Part shown: piece by piece, positions 2,420-53,330 of the stretch
Position numbering within the stretch: position 1 is the first letter of the stretch
Layout of the letters: every line of letters begins with the position of its first letter
IMG/VR virus record: IMGVR_UViG_3300021400_001327
Location: 1-64,000 of that record
DNA length: 64,000 nt
Reading direction: 5' to 3' (one strand)
From: a virus
Taxonomy: Duplodnaviria; Caudoviricetes
Notes under the pieces: model-generated
Databases searched by the model: none
Told to the model about the DNA's origin: nothing
What the model saw: the letters and a program-made list of their open reading frames with translations, nothing else
Program-made: the position numbers and the translations under genes

Positions 2420-5400
2420 TTACGCCCCTTTGGAGTAGATGGCCTGTACGAGATAACCGGGAAGCTGAGCGATGATTGCATCGCCGAGTTCCTTCGCGTC
2501 GTTCACACCGTTGAGGACAATGTCACCGATGTCGATGGACACGTCTCCGCCAGTCGTACCCTCAAGAATCTCCGGCATATCAATACTCTTCAGCATGCTG
2601 GTCAGCAAAGACGACACCTCAGACCCACGGTTGATAGTATCGTAGTACCTCGTGAAGTCGATGCCGCTAAGCACGTCCGTCACGGGGAGTAGCTGATTGC
2701 CCATGTTGTCATAGATGTTATTGTTCGTCTTCTGTTTCTCAAGGCCGTCAATGACCATCTGATACATCTGATCGTTGATGGCGTCCTGCGCGTCTTCCAG
2801 CGCGTCCTCATCGGCCACGTAGTGGAAGCCTTGCTGGTTATCGTACAGGAGAACCCTGCGCTGTCTCGCGTCTTCGAGTTCGTTCAGCGCGTTCATCAGA
2901 TCGATTTGGCGCTGATACTCGTCATTCTGCTTTTCAAGGACCTCAATCTTCAGGTCGAGAATGGCATCGTTCCACTCCTCCTGATTGGCCTTGATGTCCA
3001 TGATTTTATCTTCGTTGTCCTGAAGCTGTTTATTCAGTTCCTGATACTTTTCAGACAGGACATCCAGCCCCTGCATCTGGTCACGAAGCTCATTGTTCTG
3101 CTCGCGCAGGTTGTCGATTTGCTTCATGCCAGCAGAGATGAGGTTCCTGTAGCTGTTGATTTCGGCGTTTCCGCCCTGCGCTTCACGCAGTCTCTGCAAG
3201 CCCTCAATCTTGTTCTGGAGATTATCCAGATAGTAAATGCTGGTTTGCAGATTGTTCATGGTGATGTTCCGCGCCTCGTCGTTTAGTTCAGACAGGTTGA
3301 CCTTTGCGTCGCTGATCGTCGAGTTGAGCTCTTCAATCTGCTTCGCGTAGTTGTACCAGTCGTCACTGCCAACCTTAATGATACCGGCGTTCACCTGATC
3401 AGTGAGCTCTGTCTGTAGCGCGTTCTGTTCCTCGCCGAGGTTCTTGATAACGCTCTCTGTCAGCTTAATGGCATCGAGATAGTCGTCTTTAGTCATTTCC
3501 TGACCATATGCTTCCTTTACCTCAATCAGCTTGTTGAACGTGTCTATTTGCTGGTTGAGCATTTCGTCAATGTTTCCGAAGCTGTTTACGATATTGTCCA
3601 GCTTCTGCTTTGACAGGTCATACAGCTGATCGTTCAGGGATTCGATGGTTTCCTCGCAACCCTTCGCTTTGTCCCACCATGTCTGGTAGGTCTGAATGGC
3701 TTTTCTGGTCTCCTCGTCGTACTCTTCGATGTCGATGGTGCCTTCCTGAATCTTCTTCACGACGTCAGCCGCAAGCCCAGCGCGGGACGCGAAGTCCTCC
3801 GCTTGCTTCTTGTAGCGGTTGACAGCCTGTGTGTTCAGATCGAGCTCGGCTCTGACGTTCTGGATGGCTTTGGTAAGCTCGCTGTTTTGCGCGAGATGAC
3901 CGATGCTCTTCTCAGAAGACTTGATGTAATCAGATGTCTTTTTCTTGAGGAGTTCGAGCGCAGTGGGAATCCAGTCGACGAGCTTCTCAGCCCATTCAAG
4001 AGCGGCTTTGATTCCGCCGCCTTTCTTGCCGCCACCGCCGCCTTTTTTCTTTGTGGTTCCAGCGGTCGTAAGAATATCGCCAGAGCCATCGACCCACGAC
4101 GCCAACGAACTCTTCCCAGACGTCTTAAATACAAACGCGTCCTCTCTCGCCCGCATGCTCGCGAACGCTCCGCCGCGTTTTACACCACCGTTTCTGAACG
4201 CGTCAAACACTCGACCGATCAAACCGCGCCGTTTGATTTTCTTCGTCTCTTCGGCGTTGTGAACAATGTCACCTTTGTTCAGGTTCGTAAACCTCGGACC
4301 GTTGTCGGTACCAAGCTCGTACGTCCCTTCGCTGACGTGCTCAATCAATTCGGCGCCCTGCTCGTCAACGAGCGACATGCCAGGGTCGGCGCTTGACGTA
4401 CCAGACGCGCTTGCTTTGCCGGACTTACGAGAGTCTGTGATATCAATTGGTTCGCCAGTGTCTCCCCCACGATAGCCGGGGTCGTTATACTGAATGTTGA
4501 CGGTGTACGTCCCGCTCTGCCCGTCAAGAGCGTTGATGCTCTGTTGCGCAGCGGCTGTATCGCCGTTTACGTCAACAGTAACGGGCTCCTCGGACACCTC
4601 TTGTACAGCGGCGGTCACCGGCTCGATGTTCGGTGCGGGCGCGTTCATCATTTCTTCCTGCGTGATATGCAGGGCCTCATCATAGGCGGACGCTTTCTCA
4701 AACGCGGCGTCCCAACCCTCTTGCACCTGCTGTAACCAGAGCAACAGACCTTTGCCGCCGTTCTCGGGCTTGTCTGCGTTTACAATACCTTGGATCGTGT
4801 CATTCTGAAGCAGTTCAGACACATAGTCATACATTGCGTCTTCGTCCAATACCTCTCCGTTGGAAAGGATTGGCGTCATGTGCAGGATAATGTCCTGATT
4901 ATACGGCTCTCCATCAGTACCGGCAGAGAACTCCATTGAATACAATGTGGCGATATCATCATCCCCGACGTCGTATCCGGCGGCTCTCATTTTCTCCGCG
5001 CCGACCTGCGGGCGCTTTCTGAGATTGACATTTTTAACAAGCTGGTCGAAGAAGTCGGCGAGACTTGCTGTTACGCCAGCAAACAGTTCCCTGTTGACAC
5101 CCATAGAACTGAGCACAGTGGCGATACTGTCGTCGTCAGCGTCCTTAAACGCGCCACCTTTATACTCCTGCCTGACCCTGTCGAAGTCATACATTGACTT
5201 CATCGTCATCATGGCCGCGTCATGCAGGTCGCCTTCGCTATCACTCAGAGATTCAAAGACTTCCTGGAATGCCTGTGCAGCCTTCTCCTCTTCTGTCGGC
5301 CCAAACTTTTCGGCATAGCCCTCCGGCGAGTAAAGCTGTGTACCTTTATACAGGGGTGCTGTTGGGAATTTGGGTTCAGGTACATCCGGCGCGTCTTCTG

Positions 5401-8400
5401 TGAATGCTTTGTATACAGACGTCGCTGTGTCCTCGGCGCCGTAAACGATTCCGGCAAAGAAGTCCGCTAACGCCTTACTCGCTCCATTAACAGCGTCGGT
5501 TCTGTTCTGACTGGCCTCTTCAGAAAACAGTTCACCAATTCCACCAAGCAAATCGCGTATCGGTGACAAGAAGAACGTCTCGGTGTCCTGAACGGCGAGT
5601 TTACGCAACGTGTCACCGATGCCGGTGAAGATGGCGTCTCCGTCAATGATTCCTTCTGCCGCGTTCGTTGCCTGAGCATTTTGTAGGTTCTCCTCAAACA
5701 TCTGATCAAGAAGAGCTTGCCGCTCTTCTGCCTCTTTCGCAAGTGCGGCAATTCTGGCAGCTTCAGCCTCGGCGGCTTCGCGTGCGGCTTCTTCAGCGGC
5801 AACCATTATTCTCTCTTGCTCAGCACGATACGCAGAGAGCGCATCATCGAACGTTGTTCCAGTTTCTAAATCTTTTGCGGCGAGATTATCGATGTTTTCT
5901 TGGTTTAATAAGAACCGCAGTACGTCTTTGCTGGACGGTTTTCTCGCTCCTGTATTTCCGGTGATTTCAGCAAATCTGGACGTCAGTTCATTAAAATCAA
6001 ACATGCTCTGCGCGACAGCCAACAATTCATCATCGTTGATATTTCCAGACTTATACTGCTCGGCGAGTCTGTATGCACTGGAGTTCTCAACTTCCTGACG
6101 GTGTTGTTCGCGCTCACGGAGCATCTGATTTGTTCGACGTGTCTCGTCTGTTAAACCAAAGCGGTCTGCGTATTCCTCCGCAAATTCATCGAACAATTCT
6201 CCGCTTTCCTGCATAGCTACGACGTCTCTGAATGCATCTACTATTGCTTTTGCCTCAGCGTCAGCACTGTCTCCAGCGGCATCCACATAGTCAAGCACCT
6301 GTCTGATAAGACTATAGTCACCAGTGCCAGGTGCACCGTTTTGAAGTGTTGCCAGTAGTTTGCCAGTCGCATCATACTCCGGCCTCTGAACAAGTCCGCC
6401 ATTAGTCGCACGAGCATACATGCCATATGTGCTTAGCAAGGCGTTGCCGTTTTTGTCCTCAAATGTCGTTGTGCCGTCTTTGGCTGTTACGCTTTCCACG
6501 TCGCCAAGCAACACCTCTGACCCATCGGCGTTAATGAAGAGTTTGCCGTTCCTGTAATCAAACTCGCTGTTGGCGATCCGATACGCATCATTCAGCGTGA
6601 GCATACCGCTCTCGTCGATTTTCGCGCTCGTGATTTTCCCGATGTCTTCTGTGTAAGTGCTGATGGCTTTGCCGTCCTCGCCGATTTTGCTCTTCGTGGC
6701 TGTGACATTGCCTTTTTCGTCCTGTTTGAGTTTCCACTCGTCATAGTCACCGAACATCATATTAAATGCATCTTCGGGGCTCTTGAAGATACCGGTGTTC
6801 CTACCCATCTCATCGAAGTACAGAATACTTCCATCTTTCCCGGCCATAAACGAGCCGCCGCGACCTTCCTGCGCGAGCATACCGTTCAGCGGGTTGACCG
6901 CGAGTGCCGCATTGAACGCAGACAGTGCGGAGGTGGCCGCTCTTACAGCCGAGGCGTTGTCGTTGAATGCCGTTGTGTCCTCACCGGCGGCGTCGGTAAA
7001 TGAGCCGAAGCTCTCTGCGGCGGCCTCGCTGGCATCTTGGACTTTTTTGTTGTACTCGGTAAAGACAGTCGAGTCCCAGCCGTCCTGCATCATCTTCACA
7101 AAGCTGTCATACACGTTACCATTGAACGTCAGCTTCCCGTTCTCATCAAGACCAGCGGCTGCACCCATGATGCTTCTGATGGTCTCAGTCACAGTCGAGC
7201 CAAGGATCGTCTGCATAGACTGATTGAGAGCACCAGTGAGATTAGACTGTATAAATTTTTGCCCATTTTCGCGGGTAAAGAATTTGCCGTTACCTTCGAT
7301 GCCGAAGTTGTCGTTCATCACTCTTGTGAGTGCGCCAAGCTGATCAGTGAGCCCACCAAACGTTGTGTCTGTCCAAACCTTCAGGGTATCACTGAAGTTA
7401 TCAAATGTCTGCGGTTGTCCATCGGCACCAAGAATAGCCTGTCCATTGCCGTCAACAAGTTTGAACTTGCCGTCCGCTGTTACATTAACATTGATTTCAG
7501 ATAGCGACGCGGCAACACTTTCCAGCGAAGCGAACGCGTTATTTGCACTCAGATTCAGTGCGGTATCTACCTGTGTGTATGTTTCCTGCGCACCGGTTAC
7601 AACGTTTGTAAGAACGCCTTGTCCCTTTTCAATAGAGAACTGAATGTTTTCACCAGCTGTGGCATATGCGTCATTGATAGCAACCACAAGACTAGCAAGC
7701 TCACTCATTGATCCGCTCGTAATTTCTGTCATCGCTTCCTGGGCAGAAGTATACACCTCGCCAGAAGACAGCCTGTACACACCATTGAGTGAATCGTAAC
7801 TGAACGACCTGTCGTCACCCATTTTCTCGAGAACGCCATTGAGTACATCAACAGACTTCTTTGGTGCTGTCATGATATCGCCGAACGCGGCGGCTATCAC
7901 TTCATCCAGTGTCTCAAACAATTTATCACCGAAGCTATACTGGCCGTCTGCCGTCATGCCGATTTTATCGAGAATGCCCTCTGCCGACAGCGCATCATTC
8001 AATGCATTGAGCCCTCTGGTAACCTCGGACGCACCTGTGCTCAGCGCCTCATTAAGGGTCTCTGTTGCGGCCTTGACTTCTGCCGCTTTGTCGGCGACGC
8101 CGGTATATTGACCGCCGATTTCGTTTATCCTATCAAGCGTACTCTGGATGCTGGTTACAGACGACGAGATAACGGCAGTGGCGCCCAACGTAAGAGTGCC
8201 GAACGTCTGCTTCTCACCCGTAGCGGTATCGGTTATCGTCTGTTGTCCCGCTTCTACAGTTGCCCTCAGGCTGGAGTCCGCCTCAGTGAGATAACTATTA
8301 ATACTCTCGATTGCGCTTGCGAGTGATGTTACAGCCTCGCCAGCAATGTCATTCAGGGCTGTCGCGGTAGACGTATACGACTTAACGAAGTTCCCCTGTT

Positions 8401-11400
8401 GGTCGAAGATGTCATACTGTTTTGTGTCCTTATTATATTTTGCCGTCTCTGTCCTGCCCATCGCCCTGAGTGTTGACTCAATAACATCAACAGAACCTGC
8501 TGTGCTTATTCCGCTAAATACGGTCTGAAGCATGCCAGCCAAATCATACTCTTCGCCGTCAACGGTAAACTTACCATTTTCGTTAATGCCAAGAGCTTTG
8601 TTGATGCCGAGGTCTGTCAGCGATTTCTGCCACGCGGCGAGTGCACTGTTTCCAAAGTCGGTACCGCTATCTGCCATCGCCTGAGCCAAACCGTCACCAA
8701 TCGGCTTCGCTTGTCCATCGGCAAGAATGATATTACCGTTAGACATATCGAGAGTGATTTTGCCGCCAGCAATGGTTTCCAGCGCGGCGGTCATTTTTGT
8801 GGCGTTGTCTCTCTCTGTTGTGATATAGTCACCGAACACGCCGGAGATAGCGGCAGCAAGGCTTTCTACTGGATTGCCGTTAACTGTCCACTGGCCATTA
8901 TCGTAGCCCATCGCGTTTTCAATACCCTTGCTTGCCGCGAGAGCATTGAAAGCCTCTACCATCGTTGATGCCTTTTGCGCGGTTTCGTTCCACATTTCGG
9001 CGACGGCGTCAATATTTTGCTCGTAACCGTCCTTCTTTCCAACGATATTACCGTTGGTGTCATAAATACGGTACCTGCCGTCATCGTCGAGCTTCAGCCT
9101 TGTCTTCAGCCCAGCCTGCGCGGCCTCTTTGTTGATTTGTATGACTTGTTTTTCAGCCTCGGTAACAATGTTTCCGTACTTCTCAGTCAGTCCATACAAA
9201 TAGTTCTGCACGTTCTCCAGCCCGACGACGGCGTTCCCGCTCGCGTCAGTAACAGGCGTACCATCATCGTAAACCAGCCGATGCTGTCCATCGCTATACG
9301 CGATTCGAGGTTTCCTCTCACCCTCTGGCATATTCAGACTCGCGATTAAAGCCGCGAGAGACATGAGCGCCGCCGTGTTGGCGTTAGTGGCCGACGTCAG
9401 GTCTGATGTTGAAGCCACGATTTGGCTGTTCATCAGGGTGGCGGCATCAATATTCTGCTCACCGGCCTTGCCCTGATAGTCATACCATGCTTTAATCAAG
9501 CCAGCCATGTCACCTTCGCCGCTGTTGTACTTCGCAACAGCTTCCTTGAAGGCGTTACTGCTCTTTACAAACTCTGTGTAGTCAGGCGCCTGCGCCTGTT
9601 CTTCGAGCGTCGGAGACTTGAGCTTGTACTTCTTACTTTCGTCAGCGATAAACTCATTGAGCTCGCCGAACATATGCTCGACCAGTTCAGAACTGATTCC
9701 CATCAGCCGCCCGATTTCTTCAGATGTGCGCTCGCCATTCAGTGTTCCATTCTTGTTCAGGATGCCAAGCTTAATAGCGTCCTCTTGGAAGTTCCTTGCG
9801 CCGTAGCCGGTGTCTTCGCTTTTCCCGGGAGCAGACTTAGTCAGGTAACGAGCCAGCAGCTTCCTCTGCTCTTCGCTCCCGTAATAGTTCCCACCAGCGC
9901 CAAGCAGGTATTCCTGTGCGGCCTTGTATTCAAGATTGCCGACACGGCCAGACTTATAGCCCTCCTCGAGTGCCTTGTATGCCTCGAGCGCTTCGTCGTA
10001 GTCGTCACCCTCCTGAGGTCCGCCCTTCGCCATCTGCCATTTGGAGTAAGCGGAGGTCGCGTCCTTGATTTGCGCAGCGAGACGATTATACAGGTCAATC
10101 TCCTGATTGATGAGGGTCATATTCTTTGTGATGTCAGCAATGCTTTCTTTCGCGAGCTTGAGCTGTTCCTCGCGGGTCTTACCAGCGACATCGGCAACGT
10201 TCTCGTTGCTGTACTTTGTGTACTCAGCAAGTGCATCCTGAAGCTTCTTGGCCTGCTGGACATACTCAGACTGCTTGCTGATCATATCAGCGTACATCTT
10301 CTCAGACGCGTCGTTCAGCTTCTTGACGACTTCTTTATTGAATGTGTCCTGATTAAACCAGATGGTCCCATGCGAGCTCTCGACTGCTTTCAGGAAATCG
10401 TAATCCCCCATGTCCACCAGAGACTGGTAGTCCTCTTCGCTGATGCCGCGAGTGCCGTAGCCGGTGTTTTTCCTGATGGTCGCGCCGGTCTGCCTGAAGC
10501 CAAGCAGGTCGGTGATTGTCTTAGACAACCCGGACGCCGTTGTCGTGCTGAGTTCGGGTGTGCCAGCAACATACAGTTCCTGCATCAGGCCAATGAAGTT
10601 TTCGATGTCAACATCGGCAGCTTTCAACTGAGCCCTGAATTTATCAAATTTCGCGTCATTCAGTACGTCCTCTGTGATTTTCACAGACTTCGCCATCTCA
10701 GTGATTTTATCATAGGTCGCCGCAAAGCCGCTGTCTGTCTTCCGAAGCTCGAGTAGTACTCTGTTGCTGTGAATGTCTGGGATGACGGTCGTGCCGATGG
10801 CGTCCCTGAACTCCCGCATGCGGGTATAAAGCTCGGTTGTCGTTTCTCCGCGAAGCTCCATCTGCTCCATACGGTCGTTCAGCGACTGATATTCCGTTAT
10901 CAGCTGTGCTTTGAGTTTCGCCGCAGACGTCCTTGTCGCTTCGCTGATATCTGCATAATTCTGATACACCATATCTGCGCTCAGACCAAGGAAGCGCATC
11001 TCATCACCGCTCGCGGCTTTGTTCTGCCAGTATGTGATTTGATCAGCGGCCTGATTCTGCATATCTCGCAGATAATTGAACATGGCAAGAGAGCCCTTGA
11101 TGTCGTTTCCGACAAAACCCTTCTCCATGTATTTGTTCGTCTGGTCAACAACCTCATCGACAGCGTTGAGCATATGCTCACTCATGACTGCGCTCATTTC
11201 CCTCTCGTCGAGTTCATAGAACGAGGCCATGTAGTCGTTAAGTTCTTCTTTTGTATCCTTTACATACTGTTCGCCGTCCGTCGTCGTGCCGAGATTAGAC
11301 AGCAGTGCTGGCAGCGACATGTTCATCTCATACTGCTTTTCCCACGCGGCCTTGTTCAGGTCATATGCAGTGTTGCCGCGCTCGGCCTCAAGCTGGCGGG

Positions 11401-14400
11401 CGATCATCAACTGTGTGCGAAGCTCTTCGGTCTGCTGTCTGAGGTCGTTCTTCGTCTGCTCGTCTGTGAAGTTCAGCGGTCCCTTGTCGACCAACGCCTG
11501 ATATTGTGCTTCGACATTGGCAAGCTCCTGTTCAAGAGACGCGACCTCATCCTTGGATTCCTTCCAAGACGCAGTGGCATCGTCTGCCGCTTGTGTAGCA
11601 ATCTGTTCAGCATTAGCCGCGTTGTTCCACGCTTCGCCGATTTTGCCAAGAGCCCACATGACAGCTGAAATAGCCGCCATCGCCCCGAGGTTGGCAAGCA
11701 ATCCTTTGAACACGCCGCCAAGCGCTTTGATTTTCATGCCAGCAACAGTGGCGCCGTCACCGACCTGAATCAAACCCTTGCTATATTTCAGAGCGAACTC
11801 GGTCGCTCCATTCATTGTATAGTTCGCACCACCCATCGACTCCTGCATTGCAGAGATAGCTTTCTGAGTGGCCACCGTTTTATCGAGCGTCTGTCCGTAG
11901 AACTTATTGTACTGCTCGACAAAATTGCCGTCTACTTTTCCAGAGCTTTTTGAGCCGAACGGGAGCAGTGATGCAAACCCTGTTAAGGCATTGCCGCCAC
12001 CGAGCTTGGCCAACCCAATCGTTCCAAGCGCACCGAACGCGGGACCGATTGCCCCGATTTTGCTGATGAGACTATCGAGCGCATTCAGGATATTGGCGCC
12101 GCCGCCATAGAACATTTTGATCATGTCGCTGTTGACGACCGTCTGCGAGAGGTTTTCCCACGACGCCGTCAACTGAGCCTGCTTGGCCGCGATAGAGTCG
12201 AGCCAGCGGGCGTGTACTTCTTCCATCGTGCCAGCAGAGTTCTCTGATGTCTTAAGGATCTCCTCTGCACGGCTCATGTTATTGAGCAACGCGGCTACTT
12301 GGTTCGATCTGACTTTACCGGCGAGCAGTTCAAGCAACGCGCTCTGCTTGATGTCCGTCATGTCGTTCCAGACTTTGGAGATACCAAGCATAATGTCATA
12401 CAGGTTCTTGTATGTGTCCTCATCCTGCATGATGTCAAAGCCGCCTTTGCCGTCAATATTCGTCAGCGCGGCGACCTGTGCGCGGAGTTTAGAAGTCGAC
12501 TCGGCCATATTTGAAGTGTCTTCTCCGGCCTCTTCTACATTTTTGTTACTCCATCCTTCTGGACGGGGGTGGGTCATTTCTGCCCACCTCTACGATTTCA
12601 TGTTGTTATATTCGTAGATCAGACCATACCTTCATCTCATGGAGATGTGTGGCATACGCATAGCTGTCACCAGCTACGCTGTGGTCGTTACGGGATTCTT
12701 GTATGAATAATTGATAAATACAAGCCTTACCCTCGGAGTTGCCCTCTTCAGGGTTTTCTCCGATTTGAGCCACATGTTTACCCGACTGTCACCAGTCGGG
12801 GGAGCAAGAAGTTTACTCTGTTTTTGCGCCACGGATACGCATAGACATCGTCCTAATAGCGTTACCGGCGCTACTCGCGTCACGCGTGACTTCCGTGATG
12901 GCCGTGATCATAGCCGTCGCCTGGTCAAGGTCGACTCCAGTCAGGTTCAGTGCGCTGGCAGAACGCTGAAGACCAGCCGCGATATCAGACGCCGTTACAG
13001 CATACGCGTTAGCTACGGCGGTCATCTTGTCGCTAACAGCTTCGGCATCGCCGACATCCAGTCCATCAAAACCACGGATGATAGCAATCAACGCGTCCGA
13101 CGCATCGTTCACGCTTTGGAAGTTACCGGTGTTCGCGAACTTCGTGGTGACTGTACCGAGCTCTTGGCTTTCAGCCAGCGAGTAGCCCATGCGGCCATAC
13201 TCGGTAGCGGTGTTGATAAGGTCTGCCACAGACGAGCCGATGGCCACAGCCGTCTTGCCGCTCTGTTTCTGGAAGCGCTCATACGCCGCCGCAGACTCGT
13301 CAGTAACTTTGCGGAGCTCAGTCATCGCCGTATCGATCTGGGTGACGTAGCCAGCCATCTTCCTGACGGTGCCCATTACCCTCTGCACAGCCATGAACGC
13401 AGAGCCAACACCGAGCACACGAGACGCGAGCTTAGACAGCTTCCCGTCATACACGCCGACCAACGCACCGCCAGACTCAAACGACTCGTTCAGCGCCTTG
13501 ACTTGGTTCTGCATGGTCGCGAACGACTCTTTCGCGGCTTCAAGGTTGCCGCCCCGGTACTGTGCTTCGTAATCTCGACGCATCTCCTGATACTGCTTGT
13601 CAAGAGCGAGTTGCGCAGGGCTCCACTTTCTACGGTCACCATTCTTGCTATTGATGGCATTGACCTGCTCTTCAAGACCTTTAGCCTGTTCGCGCAGTTT
13701 GCCAAATGCGTCAATGGTCGATATTTCCTTAAGCCTCGCCTCACACTGTTCGAGCGCCGCGTTCAGTGCCTTCAGGTTAGCTTCGCTCTGATCGGCCTGA
13801 TATGCTGAGTAAGCCCCCTCAAGCCTGTTTTTTATGGCTGTACTCTCAACCCTGTCTCCGTCTTCCCGCTCGTGTTCAAACCCGAGTAGGCCGTAGTTTT
13901 TGTCGCCTCTGACTTTCTGGTACTGCTGGACGGCTTCGACGTGCGCTCTCGCTTCATCTGAGATTTGTCCAAGCGTGGACAATTGCTGGTTAAACTCAGC
14001 CAGCCCGTTCGGCGCCCGGAGGTCAATAGCATTCAGGCTGGCCAACGCATCCCTAAGCTCCCGAATCTTCTGGAGCTTTGATGAGTCGACATCGAGCGAG
14101 TCCATCCAACCGTTCAGTGTATCATTGACATTGTTACGCTTGGTGTTTGCCCGGAAGATGTCCTGATCAATGGTCCGCTGGCCACGCATGCGCTTGATTT
14201 CTTCACCGATGCGAGCCTGAAGCTGTGTTACTGAGCCACGGTCATCGACGTTCGCGGTCTGGAAGGCGGCGAGCATATTATCGATCACAGTCGTGTCGAG
14301 CGTATGTCCCATCTTCTGATAGGCTTCGCGCAGGCCGTTGACCTGATTAACGTAGCCTTCATAGGCAGACGCACGTCTGGCTTCCAGTGTATCGTGGGTA

Positions 14401-17400
14401 TGCTCGGCATTATTGTAATTAGCGTCGGCTTTCTCGAACTCCTTCTGGGCTTCAGCCGCCGCTTTGATTTGCGCTGTCAGGTTAGCAAAGGCGTCAGCGC
14501 GGTCGCTCAGAGAACTATCATCCTTGAGCCCCGTTACCTGATTGATAGCGGCCTCAAGGTCGCTCCTTTGCTTCGCTACCATCGGGCTGTCTGTGCTCAT
14601 GCGGGACAACAGGTCGTTGGCCTCAACAAGCTGTTTATCTTCTTTGTCCCTGCGCTTCGCAGTATCCAGTAGTCCCTGAAGCCCTCTCATCTGCGTGATG
14701 CGGGATTCAAGGTCGCCGGTGCCCTTGAAACGAGACAGGGCATCGACCACTTTACGCAGGTAATCTGGCAGTTTCGGGGACGACATGCCGCCGTACGGCT
14801 GTGCCATCGTGGCAACCTGATTCCTGATGTTTTCAGCCTGTTTGTTCTGACCGGGCACCATCCTATACTGTCTGCGGTTCTGTTTGCCGAGCTTCTCGTT
14901 ACTCTGCTGGCGGCTTCTCCACTTCGGATACTTCACGTCGAGGTCATCGCGCATCGTCGCCATGTTTTCTTCGATTTCCCGCATGGCCGCATTGCGCTCA
15001 TCAGCGCTCTGCGCTTTGCGGTATCTTGCGATGGCCTTTCTCGCGGCGTCGAACTCCGGCGGCAGTCCGCCAGACCCACCGTTCATGGCGTTATATTTGT
15101 TTTTATACTGTCCCATCGTGACAGTGCTAATGCGGTTGACCTTGCGGTTCTCTTTTGCCAGACGGGTCTGTTCTTTCTGGGCTTTGTTCTGCTCTACCTG
15201 AACGCGATGTTGGTCACGGTATGCAGATGTCTGCTCACGATAAGAACGGGTAACAGCGTTCATGGCCTTTGCCATAGCGTTGTATGCGTCGACTCTGACC
15301 TGTGGGTTATCTTTGGCTGCCTGACTCTGGAAATCCTGATACGCCTTATCGAAATCACCGAAAAGCGAAGAACGACCAGCGCTATCGAACGTTTCATCTA
15401 TGCCGATTGCTCTGAACTGATTGATGAACAGTTTTCTCTGGGAAAGCATGTCCTCAACATATGTGTCCATCTTCTCGACAGCACTGCTCGCCCATTTCTT
15501 CTGCATCTGTTTATTCAGGGCGCCAACACTGATTTCTAAATCTTTTACGGCGCTTTTGGCTTCTTGCAGGGCGTTTACGTCTTCGACGTTAATAAGGTCT
15601 ATCTTCCCAGCGTCATCGACTGTGGCAATTTGCATCCACTGCTTAAGTAACTCGTTCTTGTTTGGATCGCCCTGCATGACCGGCAGTTCGTACATAGCCT
15701 TCATCTTGTTAACAAGAGCTAACCTTTGCCGCTCATACTCCCTTTGGAAAGAGTCGAGCTTGCTTTTGTTAGCCATTGTGGCGATGTTGTTGTATAGTGT
15801 AGAATACTCTATATTTCCATCGTCGCCTACATTTGCGTCAAACCTGTACTGTGCGCGAACCTGTTCGCCAGACCCATACTTTTTATCGGCACCAGAGATA
15901 TTGATGCCGCGAAGTATACCGTTGGCCCCAAACAAACCAGTAATGGTTTTCTCTATAGCGCCGCCATTGTCGCCCAGAGAATCAAAAATTCTCTGAATCT
16001 CTCCTCCAACCTCACCAAGATTCAGAGAATTCAAAACTGTTTTTAGTTGTTCGAGAGATTCAAAATACCTAATCGTTCCACCGGGTGGTAAGTCATCTCC
16101 GCCGCCGCCAGACCCGCCACCGGGTCCGCGTCCGCCGCCCCCAACGCCGCTCATCAACTGCTTGTGCTCATCGTTGGCTTTGTTCTTTTTGTCGATTTGT
16201 TCCTGAAGCTTGCCCGCGTTGCGCTGACTTTCCTGTAAGTCCTTCTGGGCAGCCTGTTCGCTCTTCTTCGCGTCTGCGGCTTCCTTCTTTGCGGTCTCGG
16301 CTTTCTGCTTCTCTTGATTGAATTTCGTTTCCGCCTTCTCAGCCTTCTTCTCCGCCTGCTCTACCTGCTTCTTCAGTCTCGCGTTTTCCTTCTGAAGGTC
16401 AGAGTTTTGCTTCGACAGGTCTTTATCTTTCTGCTTGTTCTCGCTGGCCTGCTTCTGCGCTTCCGCGTTTTTCTGCTCGAGATTAGCGACCTTCTTCTCT
16501 GCATTCTGCGCCCGCTTTTCAGCTTGCGCAACCTTCCGCTCTGCTTCCTGTCTGGCTTTGTCGCTATCTTTGGCCTGCTTCTGCGCTTCATCGAGTTTAG
16601 CCTGCGTGTCCTGATCGGTTGAGGTTTTGCCTTTTTTGCCGCTACCTTTCTTGCCGCCGCCAGAGCCGTCTTCGTTCTGCCTTGTGCTCTGTTTCTTTTG
16701 TTCTTGCTTTTGCGCGGCCTGCTTTTGTGCGTTAGCCAACTGAGCTTTTAGACTGGCAATTTCTTCGTCTTTCGCGGCAGACTCTTTGCGGGCTTGCTGA
16801 GCTTCCTGTTGGGCGTGAGCAACATCGGCTTTCGCCTTAACAGCCTCCTCTTGTGCCTTTTGCGCTTCACGCGTAGCGCGGTTTTTGGCCTGTGATTCAG
16901 CAAGTTTATCGGCGTCTTCCTTATCATATTTTGCTATATCGCTATACGCCCTTTCTATAGAATTGACAAGGCTTTCTACTTGGGATGAAAAACTGCCGAT
17001 ATCTTCAATCGCAGAGGCGGCATCACCACCGCGTAAATTCTTTATAGCTTGCCACTTATAAATATTGGCATACTCCACATTGTCGTAAATATTGGCAATA
17101 GACGCGTTGTCTCTGTGCTTTCTATAGGTTGTTCTGTCGATTGCGCCGAGAGCGTCAGTCATTTTGATTCTCTGAGCGGCGATGGCCGCATACGGGTTTG
17201 CCGCGATTTCTGCTCTTCTCTTAATATCGCTGGGATTGTTCCATATTGTTCCCTTGCCGTACGGCTTCTCGAGCGCTTCAAGAGTCTTTCTGATATCGCC
17301 GAATTCCTTCAGTGTTTGTCCATAATTGCTCATCTGAGAAGACAACTGGTCGAGCGCACTGACAAGCCTGTCTATACCTTTGTAGTTGGCATCTCCTTTT

Positions 17401-17648
17401 TCGTTATCGCCAAACCACGATTCATGGACTCTACCCCAGCCGTAGTAACGAAACTGGTCGCCGTTATTGCCGTCGCTTTTTTCATTAACTGTTTGATTGA
17501 TTGTTATGTTTGTGACGCCGCCGGACGCATTTCCACCCCTGCCATTATTTCCAAGCGCTGAATCGATCCGATCTAATATCTGGTTGAACTGCGCACCGGT
17601 TATCCCCGAATTCGGTATCTTTCCACCAATATTCACTTTTCTTGCCAT
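2420..17648 (-). CDS. Giant tail tape measure protein, spliced (exons 17648-12815 and 12537-2420; ~4,983 aa)
   Basis: TP901-type TMP motifs (IDTAMTELRKVT, ANAYAVTASDIAAGLQRSASAL, LLELLAGKVRSNQVAALL). Removing 12538-12814 gives ...MRIRGAKTE-L-EEAGEDT in frame. Confidence 0.9.
12538..12814 (-). ncRNA. Group I intron (277 nt, no homing endonuclease ORF) in the tape measure gene
   Basis: 5' exon ends in U and pairs GAGU/GCUC (P1, U-G). P4 UCGGAG/CUCCGA; R CGUAACGACCAC and S AAGGUAUGGUCU (P7 GACCA/UGGUC); ends in G. Splicing restores the frame. Confidence 0.9.
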
Positions 17649-21739: not shown

Positions 21740-23848
21740 TTATAATAGTTTGCGCATACGCAATTGCGCGTTTGCGGCCACACCGTGATTCGACCTGATA
21801 ATCAGTCTTGCTCCATCTGCTTGCTTCTCGACAACGAAGTCTGATATGGCATTGTCTCCACGCATCGACTGCCCTTCCATAATGACAGCGTTGGCGATAC
21901 GCGATATCGTAAATTTGATATGCGCCGTTCCAGACGCACTGGCAAAGCCGATGTAGTTCATCCCCGGCACCGTATTGTTCGCCCTATATCTCATATAACT
22001 ACGGTAGTGAGTGGCGTCTGTATCGTTATCGAACCATGCCAGTATATCAGTATCTGTAATGGCTCCGATCAGCAGACTGCCGACCCACACATCGCCATCT
22101 TGTAGGTTGATGTTTTCTGTGAATATGTCGCTTGTTTCTGGCACGGCGAATCGCTGCTCTCTTACTATAACACTGTCACTCGTTCCGATTCCAAGCGTCT
22201 GCTTTAGCGCGTCGACAGTTGTTTTATTCTCAAGAGCGACGACTTTGCCTCTGAGATCAGAGACGTCGCTATTGATTGTGCCGATGCTTCCATTAATACC
22301 GCTGATTTGACCGTTGATGTTCGCAATATCGCCGGACACCTGCTTGATGTTGTTTCCGCCGATATATACATTCCAACCACTGTTGATAGACACGGCTCCC
22401 GCCTCGCCCTGGTCAAGAGCTTTTGCCGCCATTCCGATACCGACCGACTTACCGCCGTTCAGGAAATGCAGAACGTACGCCGCTGTCGGCACGGCGACGG
22501 TGGCTGTCGCCTGATTGCCGATAACGTCCGTGATATAGACCGTTACGCTATGGCTGGCGTCCGCAGAGAACAACCCTCCGCCGATTTTCGATGGTGCTCC
22601 GTATGTAAACGCTGGGTCGGCCACAGTCCTGTCTGACGACTCACCGGCTATCCTGTATCTGATGACGTTGGCCGTCGAGTTTAGGTTGTTGACCATTGCG
22701 TATGTATACCACACCGTCACATTGACATATGTGCCAACGTCGCTCGTTCTTCCGTTCTCGTCACATCTCTGTGCCACGACAGATGAGATGCTTGGCGGCG
22801 CATATGGTGTCACTGTGATTTGACTCGGCGCCAACACAGTACACGTCCTCCCACGGCTGTCCGTTACGACCGCCTGTATCGCATAGTTTCCGCTTGCCGT
22901 CAGCAAGCCCGATGTTCCGACATATGCGTTGCCAGACGCGGAGCCGTTTGCACTCGAACCCCAGCCGGAGAACACAACGCTCCTGATGGTGCTGCCTCTC
23001 GCACCAGCCACGTTAGCCAGAGACAGGTTTATCCTGCTGAAGCCCTGTACATATATGTTTGACCACGACCGAGGTGCACCCGTTGTCAGCGGCGACACAG
23101 ACAGAGCGCCAGCCGTCGGGACGACATCGCTCGGTACATTGAATGTGAACGTATAGGTAACAGGAGCGCCGACCTGGGCGCCGCCGCTGTATGTTGTCAG
23201 CGTGACCGAGCCCTGTCCGCTCGCGCTGTTCGGCACATACTGGCACATATCGAGGTCGGTGACCAATGAAGACGAAGTCAGGCCAGCCGCCAGTGTCTCC
23301 GTCAGTACCGTGTGATCGCCGATTTTCCACTCGACACGGTGAGTATATGAGCTATCAACAGGCGCCACATTCAACGTGATAGTGCCGCCCGCTGTTACCG
23401 TTGTAACAGTTACGGTGCCCGTAGAGTTTGGCAGTTTATATGTGACAGTTAGCTCGATATCAGAGAATGCGCATCGCGTATACCCTACAGTTGTTCCACC
23501 GTCCGCGTGCCATGTGTATGATACCGGCAACACGCCAAACGTGCCGCCGCTCATAGAAGATAGCCACGATGTGACGTTCTTTACGTTGGCGCCGTTTCCA
23601 AGCGGCACACCGATGCCGTTCGCGATAGCATGAGCATCGCCGCCAGCCGCCTTACTAAGCGTTGTGTTCAGGGTGGCAGAGATGACAGTACTGCCTTTTG
23701 TAATAGCCGATAAATCAAAATTGACCGGCTGTGACGGAGTCGACGGCCAGCCATATATGATATCGATGGGGTCGGTGATGTACTTGACCGACCATGTTGA
23801 TTTCAGCGTAAAGCCTTCCGCTGTTCTTGTGATTACGGGATTCGCCAT
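21740..23848 (-). CDS. Minor tail protein (DUF859-like)
   Basis: YVQGFS, VTDSRGR, YAPPSI...QRCD..G, VGIG motifs typical of siphovirus DUF859 proteins. Confidence 0.75.
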   Translation of the reverse strand: MANPVITRTAEGFTLKSTWSVKYITDPIDIIYGWPSTPSQPVNFDLSAITKGSTVISATLNTTLSKAAGGDAHAIANGIGVPLGNGANVKNVTSWLSSMSGGTFGVLPVSYTWHADGGTTVGYTRCAFSDIELTVTYKLPNSTGTVTVTTVTAGGTITLNVAPVDSSYTHRVEWKIGDHTVLTETLAAGLTSSSLVTDLDMCQYVPNSASGQGSVTLTTYSGGAQVGAPVTYTFTFNVPSDVVPTAGALSVSPLTTGAPRSWSNIYVQGFSRINLSLANVAGARGSTIRSVVFSGWGSSANGSASGNAYVGTSGLLTASGNYAIQAVVTDSRGRTCTVLAPSQITVTPYAPPSISSVVAQRCDENGRTSDVGTYVNVTVWYTYAMVNNLNSTANVIRYRIAGESSDRTVADPAFTYGAPSKIGGGLFSADASHSVTVYITDVIGNQATATVAVPTAAYVLHFLNGGKSVGIGMAAKALDQGEAGAVSINSGWNVYIGGNNIKQVSGDIANINGQISGINGSIGTINSDVSDLRGKVVALENKTTVDALKQTLGIGTSDSVIVREQRFAVPETSDIFTENINLQDGDVWVGSLLIGAITDTDILAWFDNDTDATHYRSYMRYRANNTVPGMNYIGFASASGTAHIKFTISRIANAVIMEGQSMRGDNAISDFVVEKQADGARLIIRSNHGVAANAQLRMRKLL

Positions 23849-35094: not shown

Positions 35095-36292
35095 TTACTG
35101 CTCGGGTACAGTGACGGTGAACAGCTTCTTCTCGTGGTCGCAGTAGTCCTGCATGCAGCGCAGCGTGAAGGGATGCTGACCATCGGTGGTGAAGTCAACG
35201 TCGAACTCAGAGCTCAGCTTCGCAGCCGGGAAGTCGACATAGGCATAGTACTTGGTGGTGATATCGCAGGTGTCGTGGCCGAGGACCTCAAGCAGGAAGC
35301 GGCCAGCATCCGGGAAGTTGATGGCGTCCGCCACAGCCTGCACAGCGCCGTTGCCATCAGTGCCATCGGCGGTGTAGGTGTAGAAGGCCAGCACCTTGGT
35401 GTCCACAGTCACATTGGTGGGCGGGGTGATGGTCTTGGTCGCCGCGTTCACAGAGAACACATTAGCACCGGCAGAAGCCGCAACTTCGTACTTGGTGCCG
35501 AGGGTGCCGTCGGGGTTCACGACGTACAGATAGGGAACTTCCGCACCGGCGGTGCCAATCGGGATATGCTTCAGCTGAACGGTCACGCCGTTCTTGATGG
35601 TGAGCTCTTCGGAGACGGTAACGTCAATGGTAGCATTGGCGGCAGCCGTCTTCTTCTGAGTACCAGACTGAGCGGCCAGCAGGCCAAGGTCAAACAGCGC
35701 GTTGGCGGCGCTGAACTCACACTGCTTATTGCGCTCAACTTTTTGTTGTGCCATGCTCGCTACACATGACAGGCTGATTACTCAGCGCCTTGTACTTTCG
35801 CACAAGAACAGACTATATCTTCTCCCGCTTTGGGAGTGCATTACTTCGACCGTCAATCGCTTACGGTCTACTCCATATAGGATAGTCGTTGAACCTTCCT
35901 GTTTCCAGACTCGGCTGCTGATTGTCCATTGTTTGGCGTTTAGGTTTTACCCATGCGTCATACATACACTTTTTTCTGCTTTCGCTCTATTACGTTTGCG
36001 TTTCTCTCTATCGCTCCGTTTTAGCAGTATGTCTTTAGGATGTCCCAGCAATTCTATGCATCAATTATTACGCCGCTTTCGCGACGCCGACGCTCTGTTG
36101 CGCGTTGGGTTACGCTAACCACGTCATGATCGGTACACCGATAGCGTCAACAGCATCTTCGGAGTCCGCAGTCATGCTGAGGGACGGGTCGGTGATCTGG
36201 GTCAGAGTCCAGAGCAGATCAAAGGTACCCTTCTTGAACATCGTGCCACGGATGGCGCGATCAATAACAAAAGAAGAAATATCAAATGCCAT
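35095..36292 (-). CDS. Major tail (tube) protein, spliced (exons 36292-36121 and 35738-35095; 271 aa)
   Basis: Splicing gives ...DAIGVPIMT-F-ERNKQCEFSAANALFDLGLLAAQSG...; codon usage looks highly expressed; lies after the neck genes. Confidence 0.85.
35739..36120 (-). ncRNA. Group I intron (382 nt, no ORF) in the tail tube gene
   Basis: P AAUUGCUGGGACA, Q AAUCAGCAGCC, R GUUCAACGACUA, S AAGAUAUAGUC; P1 GACGU/GCGUC; U before the 5' splice site and terminal G. Confidence 0.93.
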
Positions 36293-49882: not shown

Positions 49883-50569
49883 TCAGCGAGAACCAAGACG
49901 CAGAGCCGCATACAGCGCCTCGATGTCGTTGTCGATAAGTTCGTGCTCTCCTGTATTTTTATATGGCACAAGCAGTTTGAAGCATGACACAGAGCGGCGA
50001 TATTTTGAGAAACGACCAGCGGCCTTGCCTTTGTCTGTATCTACCTTTGCGATGTATTGCCACTCGCACAGGCGGCGGATATTGCGCCCGCGAACGTTGG
50101 CGCCTTTCATATCCAGCCAATTAGCCAGTTGCTCGGTTGACGCCTGAAACACCCCACGCCTGTCAGCGAACGCCTTTGCATTGCACAACAGGGCAAGCGC
50201 CACCTTCCTGTCTGTCTCTGTCGGCGCATGGTCCACGATATTCTGGGCGTCTGTCTCTGATACGAACACACGACAGCCACTGTGAAGCTCGGCTTCATTG
50301 ATGTACGCAGCGTTGACGCACTGAAGGAGATTCAGCCCGTTCGTCTTGTGGCCATTCAGCCAATCACGAATAAAGGAGACGGCGTCCACTGGGGACTCGC
50401 CGTCTGCCTTCATCAGCTTGGATATCATATAACATGCCCGATACAGCCGACTCTGCTCCTCTGGCGGCTGTCCAGACATATACTTCTTAACTTCCGCGAC
50501 CTCGTCAATCATCGTCATCCTCCAGAAAATCAAAGATGCCCGGTTCAAGCGAGATGTCCATCTCGTCAC
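49883..50569 (-). CDS. Hypothetical protein with a possible winged-helix domain (likely start ~50512-50518)
   Basis: STEQLANWLDMKGANVRGRNIRRLCEWQYI resembles a wHTH; lies directly after the RNAP gene. Confidence 0.5.
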   Translation of the reverse strand: MTRWTSRLNRASLIFWRMTMIDEVAEVKKYMSGQPPEEQSRLYRACYMISKLMKADGESPVDAVSFIRDWLNGHKTNGLNLLQCVNAAYINEAELHSGCRVFVSETDAQNIVDHAPTETDRKVALALLCNAKAFADRRGVFQASTEQLANWLDMKGANVRGRNIRRLCEWQYIAKVDTDKGKAAGRFSKYRRSVSCFKLLVPYKNTGEHELIDNDIEALYAALRLGSR

Positions 50570-53330
50570 TGTTCATCGGGACCATCGTGTAGTGACGCCC
50601 AAGATAGCTGAGCTCGCCATCATCATCGCGCTTTGGCACCATGATGCCAGCCTGCGGCTTCACGTTCGCCACGACACCGTCCGGCGCCACGACCCAAGGG
50701 AACTTCCTTCCGCGCCCTTTGTACACCTCATGCACGAGCTTTGTAGCAATATTGGCCAGCACCCGCTGGTCATCACAAACCTCAGCGCACAGCTTCCTAT
50801 ACTTCTGATACAGCGCGTCCCAGTCGGCGATGAAGGTAGTCGCCTCGTACTTCGTAAACTGCTGTCTGATCTCACGGTCAGAGTACCGCCTGACTTTCGT
50901 CTGGTATTTCTGGAGCTCGTTCGTCTCCTTGCAGAAGTCTTTGAATATCTTGGCCACCGCGTCGAACTGCTCTTGTGTGTAGGCAATGCTCTCGTCGCAC
51001 ATCACACTGTAGTCGAATCGCTCCTTCCGCCGCCACTTAAGCTCACGTTCCCATTTCTCGAGCTCACGGCAGAGGCGGTTCATATTGCTCGGCGCTTTTG
51101 AAAGTTCCATCCTTGCGTAGTACGGCGACCGATACCGCATAAAATACGGGAGGGGTCTGCCCCACTTACTGATTACGCGGGGCATTGAATAAAGGACGCC
51201 GGTTTTTGCGTAATCGATGCTCTTCCCGACGATGGTACTGATAATGTCCTCATACTTCTCGTACCGCTCCTTCTGCTCATCTGTCTTCGGGCAGCGGTTC
51301 AGATATACACTCGCGTAGTTGCTGTACTCGCCAATCATATTCTTTGTTGTTCTGGTCAACAGCAGGACGCGACCGGCGGCGTCGTTGTTTTCCTTCAGGG
51401 CTGTGACCTTGTCTTCCATGTCGATAACGATAGTGGCGTTTTTGTCCGACCCGTCCAGGAAGAGCGGGTTGTCATTGACCAGTACGATATCACCCATAAC
51501 CCACCGGCTTTCGCCGATGGCCGGACTATTTCTTTACCCATTGCTGGGCAGCTGGCACTTCGCCGACTGGAGTTTCACCAGCCAGCTACTCCTTACGGAT
51601 AGTCTCTACACCTTCCTCTCACGAGGCTTGGCACGGCATTGTCCTGCGCTCATGCGTTTAGAGTTTTGCCGTTAGCCGACCCAAAAGTCCATATATTATT
51701 GATAGTGGTCATTTGGTCCGACACCCCAGTTGTCTGGGTTCACCAGCTTTTCATCATCACGTTACCGTGATGCGCGACAGTGTTACTTATCGAAATCCGC
51801 ACCGTTCAATCTCTGCGCCACTAAGCTCTTTATGTTCAGCATAGCCACATTTGTCAGGTGGCCGCACCATTTCCAAATCTCGTCCGCGTTATTCACTCGG
51901 AGCACTACGTTCTCGCTCCGGCAGATGTGCGGGTTTCTTGTCACGACGTATTCCCCGTCGTACGTGATGCCCTTGCCTTTCGTCCAGAACTCATCGGCGC
52001 CGAGACAGCCGACAACCGGAAGTCCGCCAATGTGTTCCGCAAACGCGATCAGGTCTGGGGCGATAAACTTGAAGCATGACTTAATGTACAGCTTACCGCA
52101 CTTCATATCGTTGATAAACTTGTCCAGCAGGGACATGATGTATTTGTTCACTGTTGGCTCTTTCATCATGGCGTCGTTCTTAGCAATCGCCGCCACGTAC
52201 GCGTTCAGCGCGTTGCACTTCCCGTCTACGATACCAAGGAAGCATTTGGTAAAAAGCTCGTCTCCGCTAACGATGCGCTCAATCCACCTCGCAGACTGGT
52301 GGGCCAAGGTCTTGAAGTCCTCATAGGGCAGGTCCAGCGTCTGCAAGACCTGATAATTGCTCCGTGTGTACACCGGCTCTTCCTCTTCGGTGAAGTTGGC
52401 GCGGGCAATAGAAATACAGTGTTCGTATTTATAGAACGCATCCCAGTACCGTTGCCAGTCCCTTGCGTCGCCGTACTGCTTGAAGTAGCCGAGCCCCTTG
52501 TACATGCTCTCGCTCAGGATGATCATCTCTTCGTGGATGCTGTGCTTCTGCCCCCACAGGTCCTCAATATACTCGACGCCGCGCTCCTCGTAGAAGCCCT
52601 CGTAGTCGAAGACGTGAAGACACCCTTTAATGAACGGCTGCCTGTAGATGACGGTGGTGATGGGCGTTGTGCTGTTGGTCAGCGTCTCCATCCAGTGAGC
52701 CACGTTCTTATGCATGATGCCAACACCATCGAACGCGTTGATCTCGTAGTCGAACACGCCCTCGGCGATGTCCTTCTGCGTAAAGTTGAACTCTTTGCCT
52801 TCAGAGTTCGTGTACGTGGTCACCTTATCAACAAGGTGTTTGATGCGCTGGTTCTTGATGGTCGTCATCATGTCCGGCACAACGATCATCTTCGGCACAT
52901 AGTTCTCGATGCAGTGTGCTGATGAAAGCGCGAGCCCGCGATAGGCGTACCACTTGCTCAGTACCGTCTTGTCGATTTTCAGCCCCATCGTCACGCGCTC
53001 TGTGAGCTCGTCCGCTATCGAGGCATCGACCATCGACAGTACGCCCTGGCGCACCATAGACGCGCTGCGCTCGCCGAGCACGAACGGTCGCCCGCGTATC
53101 TTGATACCCTCCAGCGCAAGCCGCGACAGTGTAACAGCGATATCCTTGTGGTAGTTAATGTCCACGAAGATGATATACGGGTTGTACTTCGACGTCACGC
53201 CGGTGATGCGCCTGATCTGTCTCAGGTACTGGCTGTCGGCCTGCTTGATGAAATACTTCTTCTCTTCCTCTGGCGAGATATCCAGACTGAAATCTGCCTT
53301 TACGATCGTACGCAGATCAATCGAGCGCAC
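50505..53330 (-). CDS. yonO: YonO-like single-subunit (cellular RdRP-fold) DNA-dependent RNA polymerase, spliced (exons 53330-51789 and 51494-50505; ~843 aa)
   Basis: SASMVRQG, AFDGVG, RQPFIKG, VTRNPHI..SE, RLNGADFD|GD, GKSIDYAKTG; heads an SPbeta-like late cluster. Confidence 0.88.
51495..51788 (-). ncRNA. Group I intron (294 nt, no ORF) inside the RNAP catalytic DFDGD motif
   Basis: P1 CGAU/GUCG; P UAACGGCAAAA; Q AAUGCCGUGC; R GUGUAGAGACUA; S AAGAAAUAGUCC; P9 GAAA hairpin; terminal G. Confidence 0.93.

Follow-up and report, generated by a model that had tools for sequence, protein, structure and literature searches.

The first 64,000 nt of the virus record IMGVR_UViG_3300021400_001327 (hereafter the window) contain two very long open reading frames (ORFs), read from the minus strand like all the genes at this locus, and the question they raise is whether the short stretch at their boundary separates two genes or interrupts a single one. 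The record is a complete genome of 107,314 bp from IMG/VR, with direct terminal repeats, and belongs to an uncultured phage. Comparative analysis of the locus indicates that 277 nt lying between the two coding regions very probably constitute a genuine group I intron, the splicing of which would be required to obtain one tape-measure protein (TMP).

The initial annotation had proposed that excision of positions 12814 to 12538 restores the reading RIRGAKTE-L-EEAGED within one protein of 4,983 aa, and this was found to be exact. Removal of the insert, which begins AAACUUCUUGCUC and finishes with AACAAAAAUG, joins both exons in one frame of 4,983 codons plus the stop, reading MSMRIRGAKTE-L-EEAGEDTSNMAES across the joint. 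The predicted RNA junction is ACAGAGU↓UAGAAGAG and the junction peptide predicted for the ligated product is TELEEAGEDTSNMAESTSK. The start codon of exon 1, the ATG at 17648, has a Shine-Dalgarno-like AGGCGGTGG just upstream, and the start region together with the N-terminus, MARKVNIGGKIP, is similar to that of the relative P0002, MAEPVNIGGKIP.

Three relatives at this locus were retrieved from IMG/VR (L002, L003 and L004), and two of them are intron-less alleles. L002 (98% aa identity) is unbroken over the site, where it reads RGAKTQLEEAGE, as is L003 (63% aa identity), which reads RGAKTELESAGE; in both of them the length and the Leu at the site match the predicted ligation product. In G001, the complete relative holding L003, a single frame of 4,216 aa stays open over the corresponding region (G001:C1, around 67572-79598), and the protein of Brevibacillus phage Sundance and one human-gut contig are likewise uninterrupted at the site. 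Placing both boundaries one base to the left would also keep the frame (E-V-E), but the U.G pair of the 5' splice site and the terminal G of the intron would be lost and the Leu of the intron-less relatives would not be obtained; the boundaries 12814 and 12538 are thus considered right. The split codon is U↓UA in every family member that carries an intron at the same codon (site A) and has fixed ends. The last base of exon 1 and the first two bases of the intron (AA) form an in-frame UAA stop, and UAA or UAG falls exactly at the 5' splice site in all the site-A members.

The interrupted gene was identified as a tape-measure gene. PF10145 (PhageMin_Tail) matched residues 1467-1605 of ORF1 with 61 bits (curated cut-off 33.2), the match covering profile positions 4-145 of 201 and being cut at the end of exon 1, whereas in the intron-less L002 and L003 it spans positions 4-201 unbroken over the homologous point. 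The location in the conserved core of the TMP, as had been claimed, was thereby confirmed. The last 56 positions of PF10145 were not recovered by a Pfam search of exon 2 alone, and no Pfam domain was found in the C-terminal part of 3,385 aa. The profile phrog_4211 (tape measure) runs through both ORFs, with positions 587-785 in ORF1 and continuing at 808-1878 in ORF2, and further matches to phrog_28, phrog_14917 and others are all labelled 'tail length tape measure protein'. The nearest proteins of isolated phages are annotated tape measures of Bacillus, Brevibacillus, Enterocloster and Clostridioides phages, with 22-35% identity.

Support for a group I fold was obtained from a covariance model, folding energy and comparison with related introns. 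The Rfam model RF00028 aligned over its full length (1-253) at 12824..12603, including the P/Q/R/S core, with 22.5 bits and E-values of 0.002 (local search, 751 nt) and 6.9e-5 (genome search). The minimum free energy was -105.4 kcal/mol, compared with -69.0 ± 5.4 for shuffled sequences (z -6.74). In an alignment of six distinct introns at the hand-drawn structure (A2), 96.1% of the cells were paired and 27 of 82 pairs had changed on both sides, against 0-6 compensated pairs when the partners were slid by 1-3 columns, and none of 500 shuffles attained any of the observed measures; covariation with related introns, which had been suggested as a check, was present. RNAalifold, applied to eight members free of an endonuclease gene, some of them inserted at other targets, and without being supplied with the drawn structure, recovered P1, P2, P3, P4, P5, P6, P7.1, P8, P9, P9.1 and P9.2, with 35 of 71 pairs compensated. 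By its predicted structure and by this covariation, the insert is a group I intron.

The helices drawn from the sequence and its relatives follow the order P1, P2, P3, P4, P5, P6, P6a, P7, P7.1, P3', P8, P7', P9, P9.1 and P9.2, plus P10, and their coordinates are detailed in Table 1. The U.G wobble of P1 at the 5' splice site is formed by U 12815 and G 12805 and was invariant (6/6 and 8/8 sequences), while the other pairs of P1 covary with the target at other sites. One P4 pair reads A.A in three relatives. P7 reads GACCA/UGGUC, in comparison with the Rfam consensus GACUA/UAGUC, and the initial annotation had taken this as a compensatory change. A search pattern permitting all four pair combinations was applied, and among 14 distinct family sequences the fourth pair was C-G in 11, U-A in 3 and mismatched in none (three of each in A2). 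Since only these two pairs occur, the change is truly compensatory, and GACCA/UGGUC is, in the sequences surveyed, the majority form of the intron family and not an oddity of the window copy. The two CUG-GUGA-CAG hairpins described earlier are present and correspond to P2 and P7.1. GNRA loops are kept in the ten introns of alignments A2 and A3, as GUGA or GCGA in P2 and as GUGA or GUAA in P7.1. Extra helices between P7 and P3', named P7.1/P7.2 or P7.1/P7.1a, are a trait of subgroup IA (IA1/IA2); a single P7.1 hairpin was found at this place and a second helix was not seen, so the intron is only IA-like.

At the 3' end, AGUAAC and the final G were invariant in the six distinct introns of A2 and in the eight of A3, and all ten family introns whose ends could be set from the exon frame finish in G. 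Two elements, the AGUAAC tail and the P9.1 loop CAGAAAUGA, were constant in all the aligned introns (A2 and A3) while the surrounding stems vary, a pattern which suggests some tertiary contact.

Table 1. Coordinates of the ORFs, exons and intron elements of the tape-measure locus, and insertion sites of the intron family
Feature	Position (window nt; protein context for sites A-D)	Strand	Description
ORF1 (ORF list)	17648..12813	-	1611 aa, TAA end
ORF2 as listed (ORF list)	12577..2420	-	3385 aa
Exon 1, tape-measure gene	12815..17648	-	1611 codons + U, first base of the split Leu codon
Group I intron (predicted)	12538..12814	-	277 nt, endonuclease-free
Exon 2, tape-measure gene	2420..12537	-	Opens with UA completing Leu, then EEAGED; 3,371 codons + stop
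P1	12802..12818	-	Exon GAGU + intron AA paired with the internal guide UUGCUC
P2	12781..12800	-	8-bp stem, GUGA (GNRA) loop; 4/8 pairs compensated
P3 5' strand, UGUGGC	12769..12774	-	Pairs with 12648-12653; 4/6 compensated, 100% of cells paired
P3 3' strand, GCCACA	12648..12653	-	Partner of the P3 5' strand
P4-P5 domain	12734..12762	-	CGGAG ... CCCU GAAG AGGG ... CUCCG
P6 and P6a	12692..12732	-	P6a loop is the position of the endonuclease gene in L012, L017 and L024
P7 5' strand, GACCA	12682..12686	-	Pairs with 12622-12626
P7 3' strand, UGGUC	12622..12626	-	J8/7 GAAGGUA directly before
P7.1	12658..12679	-	9-bp hairpin, GUGA loop, between P7 and P3'; insertion relative to RF00028; 4/9 pairs compensated in A2, more in A3
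P8	12633..12647	-	CAUCUC CAU GAGAUG; mostly invariant
P9	12618-12589	-	3/7 pairs compensated
P9.1	12588-12568	-	3/6 pairs compensated
P9.2	12566-12551	-	5/6 pairs compensated
3' tail, AGUAACAAAAAUG	12538..12550	-	Last base is the terminal G (12538), 3' splice site
P10 exon 2 partner, AGAAG	12532..12536	-	Complements CUUCU at 12811-12807 (P1 loop); 5 Watson-Crick pairs
Site A	RGAKTE↓L		Window and same-codon homologs
Site B	Four codons downstream of site A		L020
Site C	Around AEWSRLG↓Y, ~70-90 residues upstream by domain order		L021; L022, L026 and L028 5 nt apart from L021
Site D	MEDED↓TYK, ~38 residues downstream		L023

Splicing would proceed as follows. Within the late transcript the intron would fold into P1-P10, and the internal guide UUGCUC would pair with the exon end GAGU, setting the U.G wobble at the 5' splice site. 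A guanosine bound in P7 would attack this site, and the freed end of exon 1 would in turn attack after the terminal G 12538, with the 5-bp P10 (CUUCU with the start of exon 2) helping to position this G. Ligation would yield the codon U↓UA (Leu) and a single mRNA for the 4,983-aa tape measure, while on unspliced RNA the UAA at the intron edge would halt the ribosomes. We infer that the intron is active, since its fold is conserved, the frame of 15 kb is intact and the gene has an essential role.

Homologous introns occupy the same codon in other metagenomic phages (L004, L012-L017, L024, L029 and L030; nine other assemblies), and IMG/VR, ENA and Logan each supplied assemblies with the element, independently of one another. 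With the C-terminus of ORF1 as the query, a protein search retrieved four clusters of ORF1-like proteins (P0002-P0005), all of which terminate in MRIRGAKTE and come from contigs with homologous introns. Between the window and L004, intron identity was 95% and 86%, compared with 71-74% for the exons. The homologs measure 312 nt in L004, 275 nt in L013, L014 and L015 (identical) and 273 nt in L016, while those of L012 (1,228 nt) and L017 (1,225 nt) are long and contain an ORF of 310-318 aa inside the P6a loop. No homing-endonuclease ORF is present within the 277 nt of the window intron. The P6a endonuclease gene is carried by L012 (7564-8520), L017 (6229-7161) and L024; the intron ORFs of L012 and L017 matched phrog_559 (6.5e-63 and 1e-57) and phrog_9084 'homing endonuclease'. 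The encoded protein has repeated treble-clef zinc fingers (DUF4379/CapR/DUF723) and a C-terminal nuclease part; it is HNH according to the PHROG label, yet no HNH Pfam domain was matched, and the L012 intron ORF had no counterpart when its sequence was searched against the PDB.

The ribozymes of L013 and L012 are 98-100% identical and differ by the endonuclease gene, which points to its recent gain or loss. Because some family members still hold the P6a endonuclease, the window intron is taken to be a derivative or relative of these members, predicted to be unable to home by itself. Between the window and the intron-less L002, 19 of the 43 mismatches in 1.3 kb lie from -4 to +35 nt of the insertion site, a patch resembling a co-conversion tract or a difference in the homing site.

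The family, which occurs in tape-measure genes of related phages from gut and rumen, is not restricted to one codon, as it occupies at least four places in the tape-measure core (Table 1), and the guide sequences are altered to fit each target in L020, L021, L022/L026/L028 and L023. The core pattern was found at 12 IMG/VR loci and also in three bacterial contigs, from an uncultured Clostridia metagenome-assembled genome (MAG), a Faecalicatena MAG and a Lachnospiraceae isolate. These contigs hint at the host range, and the family members in such genomes make Clostridia and Lachnospiraceae of the gut or rumen the probable hosts. In two relatives the 5' half of the intron has a second, weaker match ~2 kb off the main intron (L030:11599-11680 and L021:7960-8009), and some tape-measure genes may hold two introns of the family.

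Several points weigh against the interpretation of the insert as an active intron. The initial annotation had suggested a cmsearch as a check, and with the Rfam model RF00028 the outcome was mixed: the full-length alignment was obtained, but its 22.5 bits are below the gathering cut-off of 50 bits, which is a threshold for automatic annotation and not a definition of the class. At that threshold Rfam reported nothing over the whole window, and the intron surfaced only in a permissive search. Support for P10 across the family appears modest, with helices of 3.7 bp on average between introns and their own exons, compared with 2.7 bp for mismatched intron/exon pairs. An in-frame AUG in P9.1, with GAGG before it, might in principle allow ORF2 to be translated from unspliced RNA. 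Finally, neither a megablast search with the 2.3-kb region nor a blastn search with the intron matched any of 50,697 isolated-phage records, and there is thus no experimentally studied close relative.

The AUG at 12577, with GAGG ~10 nt upstream, is also the basis for reading the gene as truly split, with a dead or irrelevant intron remnant and with ORF1 (1611 aa) and ORF2 (3385 aa, started inside the insert) jointly acting as tape measure; split essential phage genes working as two peptides are known (PMC10448857). The P9.1 loop that contains this AUG is invariant, but among 10 family members just 2 have an open frame leading from it into exon 2 in phase; it is therefore no conserved start codon. 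PF10145 would be broken in its middle, near-identical and distant relatives encode one continuous protein, and a functionless remnant would not retain 27 compensated pairs; this reading is considered extremely unlikely. The insert might also be thought to stem from faulty assembly or to be an element of another type (group II intron, IStron, intein or insertion sequence), as the record is a metagenomic assembly and the Rfam score is sub-threshold, but the probability of this is practically negligible: independent assemblies from three sources carry the element at an identical codon, covariation is seen in the group I core, P3/P7 pseudoknot included, and for 277 nt without an ORF, terminal inverted or direct repeats are not needed as an explanation. 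An intein was rejected on the stop codons in the insert, and a group II intron, an IStron and an artefact on its length of only 277 nt, its covarying group I core and the many independent assemblies.

A functional intron could also be spliced only partially, in a regulatory manner, the unspliced RNA giving a truncated form of 1,611 aa so that two N-terminal forms are made in a set ratio. The UAA or UAG at the 5' splice site of every site-A member and the conservation of the intron above its exons would fit with such a role. However, relatives at 98% identity manage without the intron, which does not indicate any essential regulatory role, and phage group I introns commonly have a stop at their edge or shortly within it, which is usually explained as a means to keep the ribosomes off the ribozyme (e.g. 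the work on T4 td). Regulatory splicing is accordingly judged very unlikely here. A wider proposal, to which a slight chance is given, is that the family would be a lineage specialised for the tape measures of phages of gut and rumen Clostridia, reaching at least four sites of the PF10145 core by retuning of its guide, and that incomplete splicing together with the stop would set the ratio of the 4,983-aa and 1,611-aa forms. If that were true, splicing would be a control of tail assembly and not neutral baggage. The reading retained is that of one tape-measure gene interrupted by an intron whose splicing would restore its frame.

Concerning the gene itself and its surroundings, a tail protein (phrog_372) is encoded at 21740-23848 of the window. 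In the relatives a YomN-like gene lies immediately upstream of the tape-measure gene, and the two ORFs immediately upstream of it in the window gave no PHROG match. The tape measure has 4,983 aa here when spliced, 4,216 aa in the 116-kb relative G001 and at least 4,736 aa in L012. The tape measure of phages P23-45/P74-26 has about 5,000 aa, and the length of the gene in the window is near the record. Following the rule from lambda, tail length is ~1.5 Angstrom per tape-measure residue; the spliced protein accordingly predicts a tail of ~0.75 µm, with a range of 0.6-0.75 µm when the relatives are included. This prediction comes close to the longest known tail, that of phage P74-26, which reaches nearly 1 µm (PMC10034513).

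RF00028 candidates in the genome were four, all of them sub-threshold (17.6-31.8 bits). The highest score, 31.8 bits (E 1.1e-7, genome search), corresponded to a candidate intron at 51502-51732 (-), located between the ORFs 53330..51783 (phrog_8308) and 51497..50505, and alignment with the tape-measure intron shows that the two are not close paralogs. Another candidate, at 35789-36035 (-) with 25 bits, lies just upstream of the ORF 35754..35095, which matches phrog_2729 'virion structural protein' from profile position 57 onward only; given this late start of the match, a short upstream exon, the ORF 36292..36110, is likely. Outside the window, the candidate at G000:C1:93329-93531 (+), locus L011, scored 17.6 bits (E 0.002).

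For genome annotation, the locus implies that gene callers give two proteins, here and in every relative, where one essential protein of 4,983 aa is meant, and that the Rfam cut-off overlooks the intron of the window. Together with the window, the relatives form a clean natural series for this intron family within a single gene, with intron-less, intron-only and intron plus endonuclease alleles and with neighbouring target sites, which serves for the study of group I intron retargeting and endonuclease loss. The current understanding is unchanged, as tape-measure introns are documented and their splicing has been shown in other phages.

Phage T4 td and Staphylococcus phage Twort orf142 have group IA2 introns with both P7.1 and P7.2. 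The window intron resembles them in the extra helix between P7 and P3', the U.G at the 5' splice site, the terminal G and the nearby stop codon, and differs from them in its single P7.1 hairpin and in the gene interrupted, since the td and orf142 introns interrupt enzyme or other genes. For Cluster J mycobacteriophages, Pope et al. (2013, PMC3706429) described spliced group I introns located in capsid and minor tail genes; there too the introns lie in late structural genes and are present only in some members of the cluster, but these genes are not tape measures, the phages infect a high-GC actinobacterium and their introns were demonstrated to splice.

The closest cases are in tape-measure genes themselves, and the TMP has been called a frequently interrupted gene (PMC10448857). 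In Vibrio phage ICP1 the tape-measure transcript is spliced, as shown by RNA sequencing and reverse transcription PCR (Barth et al. 2023, PMC10448857). Both phages have introns of the self-splicing type in the tape-measure gene, and among ICP1 isolates the endonuclease content varies with nearly unchanged exons. ICP1 has three introns and the HNH-3 endonuclease and its splicing was shown, in contrast to the single, endonuclease-free intron of the window, for which splicing is predicted from the sequence. In prophages of the Bacillus cereus group, the group I introns TMP-IVS1, IVS2 and IVS3 occupy three sites in tape-measure genes, belong to subgroups IA1/IA2, mostly lack complete endonuclease genes and have guides adapted to each site (Tourasse & Kolsto 2008, PMC2504315). 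The family described here shares with them the small size of the introns, which are IA-like here, several sites in one tape-measure gene with the P1/P10 guide adapted to the site, the scarcity of complete homing endonucleases among the copies and the intron-plus and intron-minus alleles in related phages; it differs in that the interrupted gene is ~4 times longer and in that the hosts are probably Clostridia/Lachnospiraceae. Tape-measure group I introns have thus been known since 2008, and the intron of the window adds to this documented class.

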